A DNA stretch of 64,000 bases from Nannocystales bacterium (GTDB lineage Bacteria > Myxococcota_A > Polyangia > Nannocystales > Nannocystaceae). Positions 5,925 through 54,912 of this stretch are shown here, piece by piece; the stretch's first letter is position 1; the number at the start of each line of letters is the position of its first letter. The notes under the pieces are model-generated. The model ran no database searches. It was given only the letters and a program-made list of their open reading frames with translations, and had not been told where the DNA came from. The position numbers were made by a program, and so were the translations under genes. The stretch is from NCBI GenBank assembly GCA_050633305.1, contig JBOEGF010000024.1:373702-437701 (forward strand). The letters run 5' to 3'.

Positions 5925-8900
5925 CCTCTGCACCGCCGCCCGGCGACGACGCGCCCCAGGGCTTGTGGGAGGCGATCATCGGCTGGTTCATCGAGAACAA
6001 GCTGATCGCGTTTGTGCTGGCGACAATGCTCGTCGCTGGCGGCATCTACGTGGCGCCGTTTTCCTTCGAGAGTGGCTCGATTCCGCGGGATCCGGTTCCG
6101 GTCGATGCCATCCCGGACATCGGGGAGAACCAACAGATCGTCTTCACCGCGTGGGAGGGACGATCGCCGCGAGACATCGAAGACCAGGTCTCGTATCCGT
6201 TGACGACCGCGTTGCTGGGCATCCCCGGGGTGCGCACCGTCCGGAGTTCGTCGGCGTTTGGCTTCTCTACGATCTCGGTGATCTTTGGCGACGAGGTCGA
6301 GTTCTACTGGTCGCGGTCGCGGGTGCTGGAGAAGCTGGCCTCGCTGCCGCCAGGGACCGTGCCCGAGGGCGTCACGCCGACGCTCGGCCCCGACGCAACC
6401 GCCTTGGGGCAGATCTTCTGGTACACGCTCGAAGGCCAAGACCCGCAGGGGAGAACGGTCGGAGGTTGGGACCCGGACGAGCTCCGAAGTATCCAGGATT
6501 GGACCGTTCGGTACGCGCTGCAGGCCGTCGAAGGCGTCAGCGAAGTGGCCTCGGTCGGCGGGTTTGTGCGGGAGTACCAGGTCGACGTCGACCCCGAGGC
6601 GATGCGGGCCCACGGGGTCACGCTCGCCCAGGTCGCGGGTGCTGTGCGCAACAGCAACCTCGATGTGGGGGCCCGGACGCTCGAGATCAACGGCGCCGAG
6701 TACATGGTGCGGGGGCTCGGGTTCCTCGAGAACATCGAAGACCTGGAGGCGACCGTCGTGGTGGCCCGCGAGCACACCCCGATCCGGGTTCGAGACGTGG
6801 GGCGGGTTTCGATGGGGCCTGGACTGCGCCGCGGAGCGCTCGACGACGAGGGCGCTCCTGCTGTGGGGGGCGTGGTCGTGGCGCGCTACATGGAGAATCC
6901 GTTGGCGGTGATCTCGGCGGTCAAGGAGAAGGTCGAGCAGATTCAAGCTGGGCTTCCCAGTCGCACCCTCGAAGACGGCACGGTCAGTCAGGTCACCGTC
7001 GTCCCGTTCTACGACCGGACCACGCTGATCGAGGAGACGCTGGGCACGCTGTCGACCGCACTCTTTCAGGAGGTCCTCATCACGATCATTGTGGTGCTGG
7101 TCATGCTTCGGAACATGCGGAGCTCGATGCTCATCTCGCTCATGCTGCCGTTGGGCGTCCTCGCCGCGTTCGTCGCGATGAAGCTCTGGGGCGTGGACGC
7201 CAACATCATGGCGCTGGGCGGGATCGCGATCGCCATCGGGACGATGGTCGACATCGGCATCGTCTTCGTCGAGAACATCAGCCAGCACTTGCAGGAAGCT
7301 CCTGCCGGCGCATCGAGGGCGGCCGTGGTGCGTCGGGCGACGGCCGAGGTCGCGCCCGCAGTGGTCACTTCGGTGCTCACGACGGTCGTCAGCTTTCTAC
7401 CGGTCTTCGGCCTCTCCTCCACCGAGCTGCGGCTGTTCGGCCCGCTCGCGTTCACGAAGACGTTTGCGATGGGCGGGGTTCTCCTGCTCGCATTGCTCGT
7501 GCTTCCCGGCGCCGCGCTGGTCGTGTTTCGAGAGCGCCCGGCCGCACCGAAGACGTCCCGCACGGGGCTCCACCGGGTCGCGCGGTCGCTGTTTCGTGCC
7601 GAGCACGCGCGAGATTGGGTCCTGCTGGGGCTCGGGGCGCTGCTGCTTCCGTATTCGTTGTTGGGGGGCGCGTTCGTCCTCGGGCTCGGTGTCTACCGTC
7701 TCGTGCGGCCGCTGCTGAGTCTTGGCGTGAACCGCAGCGTGACCGTGGCCGAGAACGTGCTGGCGATCATCGCGGTGACGCTCCTGCTCGCGGAGAACTG
7801 GATGCCGCTGGGGGGTGGACAGAGCCTCGCGCTCAACGGCGTGTTCGTCGGGGCCCTCATCGCGTTGGTGATGGGCACGTTCCGGTTGTTCGAGTCGGCG
7901 TATCCAAGGCTGTTGTGGTCGATCCTTCGTAACAAGGCGTTGTTCTTGATGCTCCCCGCGTCCGTGGTGTTGTTTGGCACCACCGCTTGGCTGGGATTCG
8001 ACACCGTCTTCGGCCCGCTTGCCGGGCAGGTCCGCACCGTGCAACCGGTGTCGAAGGTCAGGCACGCGTTCCCGGGGCTTGGGCGCGAATACATGCCGCC
8101 CTTCGACGAGGGGTCGTTCCTGTTCATGCCCTCGACGATGCCGCATGCGTCGATGGGCGAGGTCCTGGAGATGCTCTCGGCGATCGATGCCGCGATCGCC
8201 CAGATCCCCGAGGTCGACCGGGTGGTGGGGAAGGCGGGGCGCGCCGACACGGCGCTCGACCCGGCGCCGCTGTCGATGTTCGAGACCGTCGTCACCTACG
8301 TTCCGGAGTATGCGGTGGCGCCCGATGGGTCTCGCGTTCGGCAGTGGCGTGACCACATTCGGACGCCCGCGGACATCTGGACCGAACTCGTCGCAGCCGC
8401 AGAGCGTCCCGGGGTCACCAGCGCGCCGACGCTCATGCCGATCGGCGCACGAATCGTGATGTTGCAGAGCGGGATGCGGGCGCCGATCGGGATCAAGGTT
8501 CACGGCCCCACGCTCGAGGCGATCGAGGTGTTTGGCCTCCGTCTCGAGGAGGTGCTCAAAGGCGTGCCCGCGGTCCGCTCGGACACCGTGTTCGCGGACC
8601 GGGTGGTCGGAAAACCCTACCTGGAGATCGAGCTCGACCGGGAGGCCATCGGACGATTCGGACTCACGATCGTCGACGTGCAGAACGTCCTGCAGGTGGC
8701 GCTGGGCGGCATGACGCTGACCCGCACCGTGGAGGGGCGAGAGCGGTATCCGGTCCGGGTCCGCTACATGAGGGAGGAGCGCGACAACCTCGAGGCCCTC
8801 GACCGCGTGTTCGTCCCGACGCCGGGCGGGGAACAGGTTCCTCTGGCCCAACTCGCCGACATCCAATACGTGCGCGGCCCTCAGGTGATCAAGGCGGAGG

Positions 8901-47604: not shown

Positions 47605-47952
47605 TCAGGCTCGGGCCTGGGACGTCGCATGGATGACGGCCGCGATCTGATCGAAGACGCTCTTGGGACAGGCCGCGTCCGCGCCCGCGGAGCACAAGGC
47701 CGCGTTTCCCTGCGCGTGTGATGAGATCGCGATGATGACGAGCTGGGACGCGTTGGCTCGCAGACTGCGAACGACCGCGTCGCCTTTGCCATCGGGAAGG
47801 TCGTAGTCCACCAGCGCGCCGTCGAAGCCGCGGACACGGAGCCCGATGGCCTCGGCAACCGTGGTCATGAGCGTGACATCGTGCTCGAACAGGAATCGCT
47901 CGATGACGACTTCGGCGAACCGCTCGTTGTCCTCCACCATCAGCAACTTCAT
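47605..47952 (-). CDS. Single-domain response regulator receiver
   Basis: LLMVEDN, LVDYDLPDGKG, IIAISS, AGADAACPK; ATGA-coupled to the MocR gene. Confidence 0.85.
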   Translation of the reverse strand: MKLLMVEDNERFAEVVIERFLFEHDVTLMTTVAEAIGLRVRGFDGALVDYDLPDGKGDAVVRSLRANASQLVIIAISSHAQGNAALCSAGADAACPKSVFDQIAAVIHATSQARA

Positions 47953-49391
47953 CCGTCCGGGGCTCCTTCGTGATAGGCCGAGGCGAGGCGCTCGACAGCC
48001 TCGAGCAACTCGTCGGGGGTGTGGCGCGCGAACCCGATGCGGAGGTTCGGGGCGGCACGTCGGCTCAGTGTGAAGCTGCGGCCCGGGTTCACCCGAACCC
48101 CCCTCGCGAGCGCGCGCTCGGCCCACGACTCGGCGGAAACACCAGGCCGCACCTGGGTCCACAGCGCGAGGCCGCCCGCAGGCACGGTGAAGTGGAGGGC
48201 ACCATCGAGCCGAGCCCGAAGCGCATCACACAACGCGTCTCGACGCTCGGCGTACTGACGACGGGTTCGCCAAATGTGGCGCTGGACTTCGCGGTCTTCG
48301 AGAAGGTCCGCCACGGCGGCCTCGAAGGCCAGACCTCCTTGGCCGTCGAGGCTCGTCCGCAACGCGAGCATCGCCGCGAGGAGGTTGGGCGGGGCGACGA
48401 CCCATCCGATGCGGATGCCCGGCGCCAGCACCTTCGAGAGCGTCCCGAGGTAGACGACGACACCGCGGGGATCGTGGGCCGCGAGGGGCTGCACGGGCTG
48501 GGTGTCGTAGTGGTATTCGTTGTCGTAGTCGTCCTCGATCACCGCCACGCGTTGCTTGGCCGCCCAGGCCAGCAGTTGCAATCGCCGGCTCGCGTTCAGC
48601 GTCGCGGTGGTGGGGTACTGGTGGTGGGGGGTCACATAGACGGCGCGCGGAGATGTGCCGTCGAGCTGTTCGACCTTGAGTCCGGCTTCGTCGACGTCGA
48701 TTCCCCGAAGCGTCGCGCCGGCATGTTCGAACGCGTCCCAAGCCGGTGCGTAGCCCAGGCGCTCTACGGCGAGTTCGTCCCCCGGCCGCAGCAGCGCGCG
48801 GGCGACCAGTGCGAGCCCCATCTGGCTCCCGCGGGTGATCAGAATGTCGTCTGCGGTCACCGAGAGACCGCGCGTGTGGGCGAGCATGGTGGCGATCTGT
48901 TCACGCAGCCGGAGCTGGCCCTGCGGATCTCCATACTCCAGGGTGCGACCCCCAGGCTGTCGTACCACCCTCCCGAGGGCCCTGGCGAGCAGTTTCCGAG
49001 GGACGAGCCGAGGGTCGGGGAGGCCGCCTCCGAGGTCGAAGGGGGCTTGTACCCGGGGACAGCGTCGGGCTCGGACGGGGTCCACGGTAAACCCCGTCCG
49101 AGCAGCAAGCGCGCTCGAGCCCCCCACCGACTTGCGCGTGGGCAGGCCGATGGCGATCACGGTGCGCCGTGCTTGGACTTCGATCCAGCCTTGGGACTCG
49201 AGTTCACGGTATGCGGCCACGACGGTGTTGCGATGGACACCCAGGCTCCGCGCCATTGTTCGGCTACCGGGGAGAGTCGAGCCGGGCTTGAGCCGTCCGC
49301 GCCGGACACACTCCGCGAGAGCGCTTGCGAGCTGGGCGAACAGCGGGACGGAGTCGCCGCGGTCCAGCGAGAGTAGGAGTGGCCAGTCCAC
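47949..49391 (-). CDS. MocR/GabR-family regulator (GntR HTH plus PLP-binding domain)
   Basis: LPGSRTMARSLGVHRNTVVAAY, YVTPHHQYPT, IEDDYD, GTLSKVLAPGIRIG. Confidence 0.93.
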   Translation of the reverse strand: MDWPLLLSLDRGDSVPLFAQLASALAECVRRGRLKPGSTLPGSRTMARSLGVHRNTVVAAYRELESQGWIEVQARRTVIAIGLPTRKSVGGSSALAARTGFTVDPVRARRCPRVQAPFDLGGGLPDPRLVPRKLLARALGRVVRQPGGRTLEYGDPQGQLRLREQIATMLAHTRGLSVTADDILITRGSQMGLALVARALLRPGDELAVERLGYAPAWDAFEHAGATLRGIDVDEAGLKVEQLDGTSPRAVYVTPHHQYPTTATLNASRRLQLLAWAAKQRVAVIEDDYDNEYHYDTQPVQPLAAHDPRGVVVYLGTLSKVLAPGIRIGWVVAPPNLLAAMLALRTSLDGQGGLAFEAAVADLLEDREVQRHIWRTRRQYAERRDALCDALRARLDGALHFTVPAGGLALWTQVRPGVSAESWAERALARGVRVNPGRSFTLSRRAAPNLRIGFARHTPDELLEAVERLASAYHEGAPDG

Positions 49392-49420
49392 TGGTCTGTC
49401 CAGAATATCGAAAGTGGACC
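49386..49420. promoter_or_regulatory. Putative MocR operator (direct and inverted TGGWC boxes)
   Basis: GTCCA at 49386 and 49398, TGGTC at 49392 and TGGAC at 49415, clustered at the short divergent junction. Confidence 0.45.
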
Positions 49421-49455
49421 TTTTGGGGCATCCATATGTCTCGCAAGGTTGCGGG

Positions 49456-50499
49456 ATGCGAAAGTCGATCTACCGGGCGAGCGAGGCCGAGGCGGTGGCT
49501 GTCTTCGAACGGGCGCCCTTCGTCCATGTTGCGGGGACGAACGCGGTTGGTGACGTGATCCTGCGAACGTTGCACGCCGTTGTGGTGGGGGACGCCTTGG
49601 TGTTTCACGGTGCGTTGGCCGGGGAGAAGCTGGAGCTCGAGGGCCGCCCGGTGGTGGTCTCGGCGGAGGAGGTCGTCGCGGAGGTTCCCAGCTACGCGTC
49701 GGACCCCGAGCGTGCGTGCCCCGCAACGACCTATTACCGCGCCGCCCAGGTCCGGGGGGTCTTTGAGCCTGTCGAGGTTGCGGAAGCCAAGGCGTCCGTC
49801 ATGCAGGCGCTGATGGTCCGCTTTCAACCCGAAGGTGGGTACGTCCCGATCACTTCGGATGGCCCCTTGTACCGCCAGGCACTGCGTGGGCTCCGGGTCT
49901 GGAGGGTCGGGCTGCGGGGCGCGGTCGCAAAACACAAGCTTGGTCAGAACCGCCGGCCGGAGCAGCTGACGAAGGTCGTGGAGATGCTGTGGCGTCGAGG
50001 GGCGTCCGGAGACCTCGCGGCAATCGAGCTGCTCCGCCGCAGCCGCCCTGACCTTCCGGTCCCGGCGGCTCTTGGCGCGCCCGATGGGGTCACGTTGTGC
50101 TGCGCACCGTCGGCCGACGACGCCCGGGCGGTCGCGGACCTACTCGAGGGGACGTACTGGAACGAGGGCGTGACGCGGGAGCGTCGGGCTCGAGCTCACC
50201 AAGGGTCGGCGGCGTGGCTGGTTGCACGTTGGGGTGAGGCGGTGATCGGTAGCGCTCGCGTTGTCAGTGACGGTGCGCGCTTCGGGTACCTGGCAGACGT
50301 CGTTGTCGACGCGCAACACCGAGGTCGAGGGGTCGGTTCGGCCTTGTTGAGGGCGGTGCTCGATCACCCCGCCGTCCGTGACGTTGACCGAACCCTGCTA
50401 CGCACACGCGATGCCATGCCGCTGTACGAGGCGTTCGGGTTTGGGCTCGACTGCGGCCGGTCGGAGATCCGCTCGATGGTTCGACCCCGACAGCCGTAG
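49456..50499 (+). CDS. Split-barrel FMN-binding (PNPOx/PaiB-like) domain fused to a GNAT acetyltransferase
   Basis: FHGA..GEK, CPATTYY, KHKLGQNR; C-terminal YLADVVV...HRGRGVGSAL...LYEAFGF. Confidence 0.85.
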   Translation: MRKSIYRASEAEAVAVFERAPFVHVAGTNAVGDVILRTLHAVVVGDALVFHGALAGEKLELEGRPVVVSAEEVVAEVPSYASDPERACPATTYYRAAQVRGVFEPVEVAEAKASVMQALMVRFQPEGGYVPITSDGPLYRQALRGLRVWRVGLRGAVAKHKLGQNRRPEQLTKVVEMLWRRGASGDLAAIELLRRSRPDLPVPAALGAPDGVTLCCAPSADDARAVADLLEGTYWNEGVTRERRARAHQGSAAWLVARWGEAVIGSARVVSDGARFGYLADVVVDAQHRGRGVGSALLRAVLDHPAVRDVDRTLLRTRDAMPLYEAFGFGLDCGRSEIRSMVRPRQP

Positions 50500-50690: not shown

Positions 50691-51812
50691 ATGAATACAC
50701 ATCGATTGTTGGCGACGTCTGTTCTGGCTCTCTCCTTGGCCGCTTGTGATGACACCGGGGGTGGTGACACCGGGGGGACGAGCGGGGCGGGCTCGACGGG
50801 TTCTACGTCGGGCGCGTCGGACTCGGCATCGGCATCGGCATCGGCATCGGCATCGGCTTCTGCATCCGGAACCACGACGACGGACGGAACGACGACCAGC
50901 GACAGCGCGACGGTCGGCGAGTCCTCGACCAGCGGCGGCAGCTCTTCGGGCAGTTCGGGTGGAGCCTCGGAGTCGACCGGCGGCGAGGGGTCTTCGACTG
51001 GAGAAGAGACCTCCTCGACCGGCGCCGCAAAGGCTCTTCCCGACCTCGACATGAACGACCCTGGTGTCATCAGTGACACCCAGGACAGCGTGTACATCGA
51101 GACGATCAACGTCACGAAGGCGTCCTGCGGTTTCCAGGACGGGTGTCTTGCGGGCACGGGCGAACGGCGGGTCCTCCGGTTCGACACGATCACCCCGAAC
51201 CTGGGAGACGCCGACTTCTTCGCCGGAAACCAGATGACGAACCCGGACCTTTTCGAGTTCAGCGAGTGCCAAGGCAGCTACGTCCTGGCTGACTACGCGC
51301 AGTACAGGCTGCTCGACGGCGACGGCAACGTCGTCGCAAACGGTCACAAGGCGGCGTTCGCCCTGATCGACCTGGCGATGTGGGTCCCGGGCTCGGGCCC
51401 GGGGCAGTACGGGTTCAACAACATGGGCATCACCGTCGGTTGGGCCGACATCTACGGCGCCGGCCTGACGTGCCAGTGGGTCGACATCACGGATGTGCCG
51501 CCGGGTGACTATGTGTTGGAGCTGAGCATCAACCCCGAGCACGTCATCGAAGAGTCCAACTTCGACAACAACATCCTTCTGCTCGATGTCGAGGTGACCG
51601 AGGGCGACACGGGACCTGGCGGCGTCGAGGTGCCCAAGGGCTGGAACTGCCCTGGCGGCTACTACGACGCAGCTGACGGGTGCGACTGCGGATGCGGAAT
51701 TGTCGACCCCGACTGCGCGGACGCGACGGTCGAGTCGTGCGGGTTCTGTGGCGATGGTTGCGGTACCACCTGCCTCGACATCGATCCGGACGACAACGCC
51801 ATCTGCATCTGA
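50691..51812 (+). CDS. Lysyl-oxidase-like lipoprotein lacking the Cu-binding His triad, with a C-terminal Cys-rich module
   Basis: Lipobox LAAC; LPDL, RRVLRFD..TPNLG.ADF, GHKAAF, GWADIY..LTCQWVDITDVPPGDYVL..INP..IEESNFDNN; tail WNC..YY...GCDCGCG..DPDC. Confidence 0.9.
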   Translation: MNTHRLLATSVLALSLAACDDTGGGDTGGTSGAGSTGSTSGASDSASASASASASASASGTTTTDGTTTSDSATVGESSTSGGSSSGSSGGASESTGGEGSSTGEETSSTGAAKALPDLDMNDPGVISDTQDSVYIETINVTKASCGFQDGCLAGTGERRVLRFDTITPNLGDADFFAGNQMTNPDLFEFSECQGSYVLADYAQYRLLDGDGNVVANGHKAAFALIDLAMWVPGSGPGQYGFNNMGITVGWADIYGAGLTCQWVDITDVPPGDYVLELSINPEHVIEESNFDNNILLLDVEVTEGDTGPGGVEVPKGWNCPGGYYDAADGCDCGCGIVDPDCADATVESCGFCGDGCGTTCLDIDPDDNAICI

Positions 51813-53641
51813 TGAGACGCGCACGGATCTTGTCTTCGGTATTGGGCGGCGTGGGACTGCTGGCTTCGGGCGTGGCTGAGGCCGCGCCCACGCAGCCGGG
51901 CGAGCTGACCAATCCGCTCGTCCGCGTGGAAGAGTGCGAGTACTGCCACACGTTCAACAACGACGCCGACGACCTCGAGGATCCAAGCTACGCGCCGTAC
52001 TTCAGCTGGCGGGGGTCGATGATGGCCAACGCCGCGGTCGACCCCGTGTTTTGGGCGGGCGTCGCCATTGCGAGCCAGGACGCGGCCGCGGCCGAAGAAA
52101 CCGAAGCGTGCATTCGTTGCCACTCGCCCCGCGCCTTCCTCGAGGGCCGGGGGAGCGCAACCTCCATCGATGACTTGCAGGATCGCGATCTAGCCGGGGT
52201 GACCTGCGAGTTGTGCCATCGCATGGAGGATGACGGCGGCATTGGGAATGGGCAGTACGCCGTCGACGACACGCTCGTCGGCGGCAACGTGCCACGGCGT
52301 GGGCCGTGGATCTACGGTGCGGACGATATCGAACCGCCCCCGCACAGCTGGGTTCAGGACACGTTTGTCGGGTCCTCCGAGGCCTGCGGAACCTGCCACG
52401 ATGTCACCACCGAGCGCCCGCGGGTCGACGATGATGGCGAGCCGACCGGTTCCAACTTCAATGAGCAGCGCACCTACAGCGAGTGGGCCGGCAGCGCGTT
52501 TGCGGATCCAGGCGTGGACTTCCGGTCTTGCCAGGACTGCCACATGCCCGCGGTCGAGGACGTGGCGGGCTGTCGCGACCACGTGGGTGTGCACGAGCAC
52601 GAGAGCGGCGGACGACGGCACGACATGGTGGGCGCCAACCGCTTCGTCGTCAGCCTGTTGGCGGAGGACGCGACCGTCTTGGATAACGTGGCGTTCAGCC
52701 ACACGCTCAACGTCATGGACGAGTTCCTGGAGACGGCCGCGACGCTGGAGGTGAGCTTCGCAGGCCCTGCGGACCTGGGAGAGGGACTCGACGGCCCCTT
52801 CGTGACGGTGACGAACCTGACCGGGCATAAACTGCCGACCGGATACTCCGAAGGCCGCGTGATGTGGCTCGAGGTCATCGTCCGCCACGAGGGCGAGGTT
52901 CTGTGGGAGTCCGGGACATGGGACGAGGCCCAGGGGACGATGCTCGAGGACCCGCAGTTGCGGACGTATCAAGGCGTTGCGGATTCGTATTCCACCGGTG
53001 AAACGCTGCATCTGCTTCGCAACGACCACTGGGTCCTCGATACCCGCATTCCGCCCCGAGGTCTGACGCCCGATCCGCAGACGGATCCCGTCGGTTCCCG
53101 ATACGCGGTCCAGGACGACGGCACGTGGCCGCACTTTGACGAGGTGGAGTACGCCTTTGACCCGGTGCCCGAGCTTGCCGACCTGGATGAAGGGGAGCTG
53201 GAGGTTTCGGTCCGGCTGCTCTATCTGGTGAACACGCGCTCGTACATCGACTTCCTCGCCGCGGAGAACCAGACCAACGACGCGGGCAACGACGTCGCGA
53301 TGTTGTTTGACGGCGCTGGGGGAGCGACACCGATGGTGCTCGCGCACGATGTTCAGCTCGTCCCGATCGCCAACCTCGGCGGAACCTCCACCGGGCAAGG
53401 GAGTACGTCCGCTGGGAATCCGAGCTCGAGCGGAGATGTCACCTCCGGTGGAGGCGGTACGACCACGAGTGGTTGGCCGTCGTCGGCGACGACGACGGCC
53501 AACGATGCCGGCACGTCATCGGGCACGGACGAAGTCTGTGACACCTGCGAAGGTGGCTGCGGCTGTACGAGCGGGGAGGGCGGCAGCGGATGGCTTCTTC
53601 TGGGGTTCATCGGCTGGGCGATACGCAGGAGGCGACGATGA
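51812..53641 (+). CDS. Pentaheme c-type cytochrome with a MYXO-CTERM-like anchor
   Basis: Signal peptide; CEYCH, CIRCH, CELCH, CGTCH, CQDCH; WRGSMMANAAVDP, GHKLPTG; C-terminal GCGC...WLLLG...RRRR. Confidence 0.9.
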   Translation: MRRARILSSVLGGVGLLASGVAEAAPTQPGELTNPLVRVEECEYCHTFNNDADDLEDPSYAPYFSWRGSMMANAAVDPVFWAGVAIASQDAAAAEETEACIRCHSPRAFLEGRGSATSIDDLQDRDLAGVTCELCHRMEDDGGIGNGQYAVDDTLVGGNVPRRGPWIYGADDIEPPPHSWVQDTFVGSSEACGTCHDVTTERPRVDDDGEPTGSNFNEQRTYSEWAGSAFADPGVDFRSCQDCHMPAVEDVAGCRDHVGVHEHESGGRRHDMVGANRFVVSLLAEDATVLDNVAFSHTLNVMDEFLETAATLEVSFAGPADLGEGLDGPFVTVTNLTGHKLPTGYSEGRVMWLEVIVRHEGEVLWESGTWDEAQGTMLEDPQLRTYQGVADSYSTGETLHLLRNDHWVLDTRIPPRGLTPDPQTDPVGSRYAVQDDGTWPHFDEVEYAFDPVPELADLDEGELEVSVRLLYLVNTRSYIDFLAAENQTNDAGNDVAMLFDGAGGATPMVLAHDVQLVPIANLGGTSTGQGSTSAGNPSSSGDVTSGGGGTTTSGWPSSATTTANDAGTSSGTDEVCDTCEGGCGCTSGEGGSGWLLLGFIGWAIRRRRR

Positions 53642-54912
53642 CGCGAACGAGAATCCTTGGAGTTGTGTTCGCTCTTGCCGCATGCGGCGACGCTCCCGGT
53701 ACGCGTTCCACCGATGGTTCGAGCGGGTCAACGGCGGAGGCAGGCTCGACCACTGCGTCCTCCGATGGAGGCGCGTCATCGGAGTCGAGCGGGGGCGGCA
53801 CAACGTCTCCAAGGGCGACCGGGTCCAGCGGGTCCAGCGGGGCGGATTCGAGTGAGACCAGCACGGGAGCCGGTCCGCTCGAGGTGACTCCGTGGGAATG
53901 GGCTCTGCCGCCAGGCTTCCCGCAGCCGGTCGTCCCGCAGAGCAATCCGATGACCGTCGAGGGGGTGGAGCTGGGTCGACACCTCTTCTTCGACACCCGG
54001 TTGTCGGTCGACGGCACATACGCCTGTTCGAGTTGTCACGACCCCGAATCTGCCTTCACCGACGGCCTCGCGATGGCCGAAGGCGTCACGGGCCAGATTC
54101 ACACCCGGGGCTCGATGAGCCTCGCGAACGTCGCCTACGCGGGCACGCTTGCCTGGGCGAACCCCGAGCTCCTCGACCTCGAGACCCACGCGCTGGTTCC
54201 GATGTTTGGCACCGAGCCTGTCGAGATGGGCTTGATCGACGAAGACGACCTCGTCTCACGGATCGCCAGCGAGCCGGTGTACGACGAACTCTTTGCGGCC
54301 GCGTATCCCACGGACGCTGACCCCATCACGCTGGCTCATGTGACCCAGGCGCTCGCGTCGTTTCAGCGCTCGCTGATCTCGGGCCGCGCTCCGTTCGACC
54401 GTTGGTTCTTCGAGGGCGACGAGGAGGCGATCAGCGAGGCAGCCAAGCGGGGGTGGGACCTCTTCAACGTCCCCGGCGAGTGCACCTACTGCCACTTCGG
54501 ATTCAACTTCTCCAACGCGTCCTACTTCGAGGGGATGCCTCAGCGGCCGCTGGAGTTTCACAACACCGCGCTCTACAACGAGGATGGCCAGGGCGGATAC
54601 CCGGCGGGCAATGAGGGGCTCTACGCGTTCTCCGGGGAGGATGCGGACATGGGCAAGTTCAAATCCCCGACCCTGCGAAACATCGCCGTGACCGCGCCGT
54701 ACATGCATGACGGCAGTATCGCGACGCTGGAGGAGATGCTGGAGCACTACTCGGTCGGCGGCCGTGTCGAGTCTCCCAACGCCGACCATCGGATGCGCAC
54801 GTTCACCCTCAAGGACGACGAGGTGGCAGACCTCATCGCATTCTTCGAGAGCCTGACGGACGACGCATTTCTCACCAACCCCGCCCACGCCGACCCTTGG
54901 GTCGGCCGCTAG
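53638..54912 (+). CDS. MbnH/MauG-type di-heme enzyme (bCCP superfamily) lipoprotein
   Basis: AGGAGG RBS, lipobox LAAC, WALPPGFP.P.VP..NPMT...ELGRHLF, CSSCH, CTYCH, FKSPTLRNIAVTAPYMHDGS, LEHY (Tyr at the heme-ligand position). Confidence 0.9.
   Translation: MTRTRILGVVFALAACGDAPGTRSTDGSSGSTAEAGSTTASSDGGASSESSGGGTTSPRATGSSGSSGADSSETSTGAGPLEVTPWEWALPPGFPQPVVPQSNPMTVEGVELGRHLFFDTRLSVDGTYACSSCHDPESAFTDGLAMAEGVTGQIHTRGSMSLANVAYAGTLAWANPELLDLETHALVPMFGTEPVEMGLIDEDDLVSRIASEPVYDELFAAAYPTDADPITLAHVTQALASFQRSLISGRAPFDRWFFEGDEEAISEAAKRGWDLFNVPGECTYCHFGFNFSNASYFEGMPQRPLEFHNTALYNEDGQGGYPAGNEGLYAFSGEDADMGKFKSPTLRNIAVTAPYMHDGSIATLEEMLEHYSVGGRVESPNADHRMRTFTLKDDEVADLIAFFESLTDDAFLTNPAHADPWVGR

Follow-up and report, generated by a model that had tools for sequence, protein, structure and literature searches.

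A lysyl oxidase clade without copper ligands, paired with an MbnH-type di-heme enzyme in the Nannocystaceae

Introduction

In a 2025 review, the quinone cofactors LTQ and TPQ are described as products of autocatalytic, copper-dependent processes, with the biogenesis of LTQ, the Lys-Tyr quinone of lysyl oxidases (LOX), given as unresolved and with no structure containing mature LTQ (PMC11951088, PMC9694262). For LOXL2, whose active-site numbering we take from the relevant part of PMC9659206, each of the substitutions H626Q, H628Q, and H630Q is reported to abolish LTQ formation, and H652Q to lower LTQ to below half (PMC9694262, excerpt of section 2.8). A LOX that has lost its histidines but keeps Lys and Tyr has already been published for red algae: the secreted LOX-like proteins of Cyanidioschyzon merolae and Cyanidium caldarium lack the His core and retain the Lys/Tyr pair, C. 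merolae being the sole exception in a 2015 LOX survey, and the excerpted text of these reports describes neither a partner enzyme nor a demonstration of the cofactor (PMC4448552, PMC6508830).

Di-heme enzymes offer a second point of comparison. MauG, passing through a bis-Fe(IV) state, matures the TTQ cofactor of a separate protein, pre-methylamine dehydrogenase; MbnH turns a Trp of its neighbor MbnP into kynurenine (PMC11951088, PMC11892367, PMC3621798, in excerpt). The targets described there for MauG and MbnH are Trp and not Tyr, and MauG starts from a Trp that is already hydroxylated (PMC11951088, in excerpt). A Tyr axial ligand, Tyr294, separates MauG from the peroxidases (PMC7567364). 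Here we describe a bacterial LOX lineage that lacks the copper ligands and is encoded beside an MbnH-type gene; the open-access literature searched yielded no paper linking a LOX to a di-heme enzyme.

Results and Discussion

A LOX domain without its copper ligands

The window (the whole stretch of DNA analyzed, 64,000 nucleotides) carries a LOX gene, here called LOX*, which is the sole LOX gene found in its source genome (Table 1). The protein has a lipoprotein signal that, as read from the sequence, ends at Cys19 and is followed by a Ser/Thr/Gly linker, and residues 130-303 match PF01186 with an E value of 1.6e-32 (113 bits, against a cut-off of 20.4). The LOXL2 structure 5ZE3 is the top match both by sequence (phmmer, E = 1.2e-24) and by fold: an AF2 model built with 89 sequences (pLDDT 92.5) superimposes on it with Z = 21.8 and an rmsd of 2.3 over 187 residues at 32% identity (VIA-align; the runner-up has Z = 8.2), and Foldseek gives a TM of 0.64.

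Table 1. Positions of LOX*, its active-site features, and the adjoining heme protein genes in the window
Feature	Position	Strand	Description
LOX* gene	50691..51812	+	373 aa lipoprotein: signal, linker, lysyl oxidase domain, C-terminal Cys-rich module
Former copper motif	51267..51284	+	C193-Q194-G-S196-Y-V198 replaces C-H-x-H-x-H
H219 and K220 (in GHKAAF)	51345..51350	+	H219 = LOXL2 H652; K220 = LTQ lysine, LOXL2 K653
A224	51360..51362	+	Ala in place of FCL cysteine
M245	51423..51425	+	clade-specific, invariant
Y255 (in GWADIY)	51453..51455	+	LTQ tyrosine, LOXL2 Y689
E288..N293-N294	51552..51572	+	invariant in 48/48 clade domains
C-terminal Cys-rich module	51642..51809	+	10 Cys, GCDCGC
Pentaheme c-type cytochrome	51812..53641	+	MYXO-CTERM anchor; start overlaps LOX* stop (TGATG)
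MbnH-family di-heme lipoprotein	53638..54912	+	CxxCH at 130 and 282; start overlaps cytochrome stop (ATGA)

A sequence-only reading of this DNA had claimed that all three copper-ligand histidines are gone, and this is borne out: the codons are TGC at 51267, CAA at 51270, AGC at 51276, and GTC at 51282, phmmer sets CQGSYV on the LOXL2 CHRHYH (and GHKAAF on GHKASF, WADIY on CWDMY), and the alignment does not place the triad elsewhere. Its view that a sequencing error is unlikely also holds, as 39 of the 89 sequences in our first homolog set lack the triad (one of them retains a single His). The absence of both the FCL Cys, now Ala224, and its partner Cys was likewise read correctly. The spacing of K220 and Y255 is 35 residues, as had been said, but a value of 35 is not diagnostic, since K653 and Y689 of LOXL2 are 36 apart.

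LOX* thus shares with the LOX family (human LOX, LOXL2, 5ZE3, PF01186) the domain and fold, the LTQ Lys and Tyr, the His before the Lys, and a secreted location, but it lacks His-x-His-x-His and one disulfide, comes from a bacterium as a lipoprotein, and has a di-heme enzyme encoded nearby. In spite of the missing triad, LOX* likely resembles copper LOX in its cofactor chemistry. Because the LOXL2 His-to-Gln mutants make no LTQ, self-processing at the old copper site of LOX* should be impossible, and with the triad lost the cofactor would have to come from the action of another agent. The E288..N293-N294 segment we take to be the LOX calcium-site motif. The C-terminal Cys-rich module gave no Pfam match in a sequence scan. 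The same GCDCGC module is found in 7 to 17 repeats in unrelated proteins (P0095, P0097, P0099, P0100, and P0170), two of which were scanned and matched no Pfam family.

A single clade under selection

The His-less domains form a single branch within the Nannocystaceae (SH-aLRT 98) in a LOX tree of 96 rows, which includes 40 of 135 ordinary LOX rows. Its sister group (18 rows, support 96) shares the architecture, including the Cys-rich module, as well as the absence of the Cys pair, but has all three histidines. Because it is common to the His-keeping sister clade, the loss of the Cys pair is an older and separate change, which rules it out as part of the loss of the histidines; the sequences place the Cys pair first and the His triad later in the probable order of loss.

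To describe the clade we used 48 distinct domains with at least 85% coverage, 31 of them below 90% identity to one another, leaving out two unrelated degenerate paralogs at locus L062. K220, Y255, D227, M245, W251, D253, four Cys, E288, N293, and N294 are each present in all 48, as is Val or Leu at position 198, and H219 is present in 46. No His stands at the triad columns in 47 of the 48, and the remaining domain has a single one. M245 occurs in 31/31 nonredundant clade sequences and in 0/19 sister sequences, most His-triad LOX having Gln there, whereas W251 is found in 100% of the sister clade and 91% of other His-triad LOX. Ratios of dN/dS (Nei-Gojobori) range from 0.056 to 0.38 in 10/10 clade pairs, and together with the loss common to homologs they rule out sequencing error or decay of the gene. 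The earlier proposal of a selected variant rather than a decaying gene therefore stands: the orthologs in the cassette are also His-less, and the Lys/Tyr pair is conserved throughout the His-less clade.

The fate of Lys and Tyr in other LOX domains bears on what kind of variant this is. Searching 1.84 billion representatives with a profile turned up 142 new proteins, of which 124 carry 158 LOX domains in total. Outside the clade, 117/120 triad domains keep both residues, and the 38 that lack the triad divide into 27 with neither residue, 7 with both (5 without any His, 2 with two His), and 4 that are gapped; none has lost just one. A further set of 65 contributed 7 triad-less domains without the Lys/Tyr pair and 2 additional clade members. 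Since most triad-less domains have lost the pair, the LOX fold requires neither residue; dead domains drop them together, and by this measure the LOX* clade resembles the catalytic group. Of the two options left by the sequence-only reading, a Cu-independent variant is accordingly favored over a pseudoenzyme on sequence grounds, because evident pseudo-domains lose Lys and Tyr together and because LOX* has a dedicated di-heme neighbor, which that reading did not mention (see below).

LOX* could instead be a noncatalytic partner of the di-heme enzyme, either a scaffold or a substrate- or Ca-binding subunit, in which unmodified K220 and Y255 serve in binding or in a radical relay. The replacement of the triad by small and hydrophobic residues and the readiness with which LOX domains turn into pseudo-domains (27/38) would suit this reading, and the complex predicted below is compatible with any binding model. 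We nonetheless think it quite unlikely, as pseudo-domains lose both Lys and Tyr whereas the cassette-borne LOX* proteins keep both down to 57% identity, and H219, whose LOXL2 equivalent aids LTQ formation, is retained along with them.

LOX* is consistently linked to an MbnH-type gene

Downstream of LOX* in the window lie genes for a pentaheme cytochrome and for a di-heme enzyme that belongs to the MbnH family (TIGR04039, 425 bits against a cut-off of 363) and falls below the MauG equivalog (TIGR03791, 202 bits against a cut-off of 444). Its Y371 aligns with MauG Tyr294 and is present in 13/13 LOX*-linked clade rows, and W173, invariant in 45/45 rows, is on that ground probably the inter-heme Trp. 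No promoter or terminator matches were found, and no other mau genes were seen beside this MbnH. Upstream, a GntR/MocR-type PLP regulator is divergent from a pyridoxamine-oxidase-like/GNAT fusion (window 47949-50499), an arrangement that is not kept at other cassette loci.

The linkage was examined in 159 loci, 16 with clade members and 141 with triad LOX. Thirteen clade loci have at least 3.5 kb downstream; two of these duplicate others, leaving 11 distinct loci plus the window. An MbnH/MauG-type gene lies within 3.5 kb downstream in 13/13 of these clade loci (counting L054, where it is at 8822) and in 0/85 His-triad loci with equal flank, a contrast that reflects one evolutionary event and not a statistical sample, the pairing having a single origin in our data. 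Among the 15 sister-clade loci examined, none of the 7 with ~8 kb downstream carries MbnH. The nearest approach to a heme enzyme at a triad locus is a distant peroxidase gene ~2 kb upstream at L085. Neither a clade MbnH without LOX* nor a clade LOX* without MbnH was seen in the loci examined, and two genomes hold two LOX*-MbnH pairs each. LOX* is patchily distributed, occurring in 8/72 family genomes and in 1/6 other genomes of the genus.

Our search for a second lineage in which a His-less LOX is joined to a di-heme enzyme turned up none, either among P0190 relatives (401 genomes) or in another 80 loci with 85 domains and flanks of 1.5-3.5 kb. These 80 loci overlap the earlier samples and apparently come from the same phylum, not a different one. 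A single plasmid match was rejected as such a lineage because it keeps the triad.

The pentaheme cytochrome separates LOX* from MbnH in 7/12 distinct cassettes; in the other 5, MbnH stands directly behind LOX*. It is an extra paralog of a family-wide gene found in 69/72 family genomes at 49-70% identity, and these two facts rule it out as an obligatory part of the cassette. The cytochrome family has no constant neighbors and no solved relative by sequence, and its matches in Atlas are limited to unnamed multiheme clusters.

It is very improbable that the linkage is mere hitch-hiking, in which a single cassette would have been passed on whole although LOX* and MbnH do not work together. The single origin and the patchy spread would both be consistent with block movement, and the correlation of LOX* and MbnH distances (Mantel r = 0.87 for 12 pairs) is expected from coinheritance alone. 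However, the flanking genes differ at most loci while the LOX*-MbnH pair stays constant, the pair has survived the loss of the middle gene, overlaps of start and stop codons recur, and neither partner has been seen alone in the loci examined. We regard a functional partnership of some kind as highly probable.

Descent of the linked MbnH and a predicted complex

Of the three MbnH genes above the cut-off in the source genome, two come after mbnP and one after LOX*; no mbnP was found near any LOX*-linked mbnH in the loci examined. In two MbnH trees (IQ-TREE quick, 87 rows; FastTree, 94 rows including 91 of 94 family matches) the LOX*-linked enzymes form one clade of 13 rows, with support of 92 and 99, and the enzymes closest to it have either MbnP or no partner at all. 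The MbnH of L288, a contig that ends inside the LOX* tail, falls in this clade. Because the clade is nested among MbnP-partnered enzymes, the LOX*-linked MbnH descends, on these trees, from an MbnP-partnered MbnH, and LOX* appears to have replaced MbnP. Private to the clade are the invariant residues F257, G280, Y284, F287, Y296, and F297, and 11/13 members have an 11-residue loop deletion. The cassette is thus like the MbnH-MbnP pair (TIGR04039/TIGR04052; 6E1C, 7L6G) in its enzyme family and in having the partner gene directly upstream, but it differs in that the partner has the LOX fold and is not MbnP, in its own set of aromatics, and in a proposed target that is Tyr and not Trp.

The predicted MbnH-LOX* complex scores 0.55, against 0.01 for the best control, with contact agreement of at least 89% between runs and a partner pLDDT of at least 88. 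It lends weak support to the pairing, at a mark reached by 116/157 solved and 2/215 mismatched pairs, with scores of 0.60 or lower including 18/157 solved pairs and both of the mismatches. Judged from sequence, then, the LOX* clade is a real, selected, copper-ligand-free lineage with a dedicated MbnH-derived partner, which is more than the loss of a motif.

Other MbnH paralogs without an upstream mbnP were also seen: L282 (4951-6021) and L285 hold a partnerless pair that falls near the LOX*-linked clade, and those at L271-L279 form a group preceded by a small unknown lipoprotein.

Proposed copper-free cofactor formation

How might a LOX without copper ligands acquire its cofactor? We propose, with slightly less than even confidence, that the MbnH/MauG-type enzyme oxidizes Tyr255, that Lys220 adds to it, and that an LTQ-type quinone forms without copper. 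H2O2 would take the di-heme enzyme to a bis-Fe(IV) state; holes would travel via F257, Y284, F287, Y296, and F297 of MbnH to Y255 of LOX*; Y255 would be oxidized to a dopaquinone-like state; and addition of K220 would create the cross-link, with further oxidation giving the quinone. Two later steps are weaker: mature LOX* may act as an oxidase on a primary amine outside the cell, and either O2 or hemes (those of MbnH or of the pentaheme cytochrome) may then reoxidize the quinone. LOX* would in that case act like an amine dehydrogenase built on the LOX fold. Reoxidation through the cytochrome is the less secure because that protein is optional and family-wide. The cassette MbnH shares with MauG the di-heme arrangement, the Tyr axial ligand, and the putative inter-heme Trp, and its product would likewise be a cross-linked quinone within another protein that oxidizes amines; the substrate fold and residues differ, however (Lys-Tyr versus Trp-Trp), as does its standing relative to the MauG cut-off. 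Two points count against oxidation of Y255: the known targets are Trp, and LTQ requires insertion of oxygen into Tyr, where MauG starts from a Trp that already carries a hydroxyl. Nor does retention of the Lys/Tyr pair require MbnH, because no di-heme neighbor was found at L187, L039, or L459, three His-poor loci with context that keep the pair, and the red algal proteins keep it as well. The red algal proteins are like LOX* in His loss, Lys/Tyr retention, and secretion, but they come from eukaryotic acidophiles, and the accounts cited above name no partner enzyme.

A different role for MbnH would follow if it modified LOX* elsewhere, for instance by turning Trp251 into kynurenine, and so used M245 and H219 to make a Cu(I) site like that of MbnP; LTQ formation would then still be supported by copper, or LOX* would be a copper-binding protein. 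M245 is the sole clade-specific invariant residue able to bind metal, H219 and W251 are present in 46/48 and 48/48 domains, the cassette MbnH descends from partners of MbnP, and MbnP after MbnH action binds Cu through His, Met, kynurenine, and water (PMC11951088, in excerpt). We consider this unlikely, given that W251 is conserved also in His-triad LOX without MbnH, that H219 is replaced in 2/48 domains, that LOX* has no WxW motif, and that no copper transport gene was found among the neighbors scanned at a subset of loci.

It is also improbable that the quinone is made by other means (another metal, an unlinked enzyme, or ROS) and that MbnH serves turnover, removing H2O2 or reoxidizing the quinone, while the cytochrome carries the electrons. 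MauG-type enzymes are described as poor peroxidases in an excerpt of PMC11892367, the cassette MbnH keeps the Tyr axial ligand, and His-triad LOX, which make H2O2, have no such neighbor (0/85). A turnover role would nevertheless fit the Lys/Tyr-keeping His-less domains that lack an MbnH neighbor and the red algal proteins, and because copper also takes part in reoxidation in copper amine oxidases (PMC9694262, in excerpt), a LOX that has lost it would need a redox partner.

Maturation of LOX* by MbnH, if true, would open a new route to this class of cofactor and would mean that MbnH enzymes have substrates of two kinds. With a small bacterial LOX domain that is matured by an added enzyme, the steps of LTQ formation could be separated and tested, and the His-keeping sister clade would be a ready control. 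The fuller picture, in which the first tyrosine-derived quinone to come from a separate enzyme without copper is made by an enzyme recruited from MbnP and is reoxidized by the cytochrome, in a heme-coupled amine dehydrogenase at the myxobacterial surface, is one we hold to be rather doubtful. Even under the rival readings, LOX*-MbnH would be an uncharacterized but conserved enzyme-partner cassette.

Other arrangements of LOX domains

The searches also returned LOX domains in other settings. Tandem LOX-LOX proteins (P0098, P0101, P0103, and ~20 more) have a first domain without the triad, Lys, or Tyr and an intact last domain, and are a widespread enzyme/pseudo-enzyme architecture. Lys and Tyr are also retained by His-poor domains that fall outside the clade, namely P0111, P0116, P0159, P0190, P0227, P0066, L161, L187, L039, and L459, several of which read C-R-x-x at the motif. 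One protein, P0096, on a contig of 1341 bases, has a clade-like architecture and the clade Met, yet its Lys and Tyr are both gone, which counts against the proposal above; no similar locus was found in 72 family genomes. Locus L062 (2338-11065) has two degenerate tandem LOX genes near an intact LOX that is itself followed by a GSDH-type dehydrogenase, and at L187 a GSDH domain is fused to the His-poor LOX domain.
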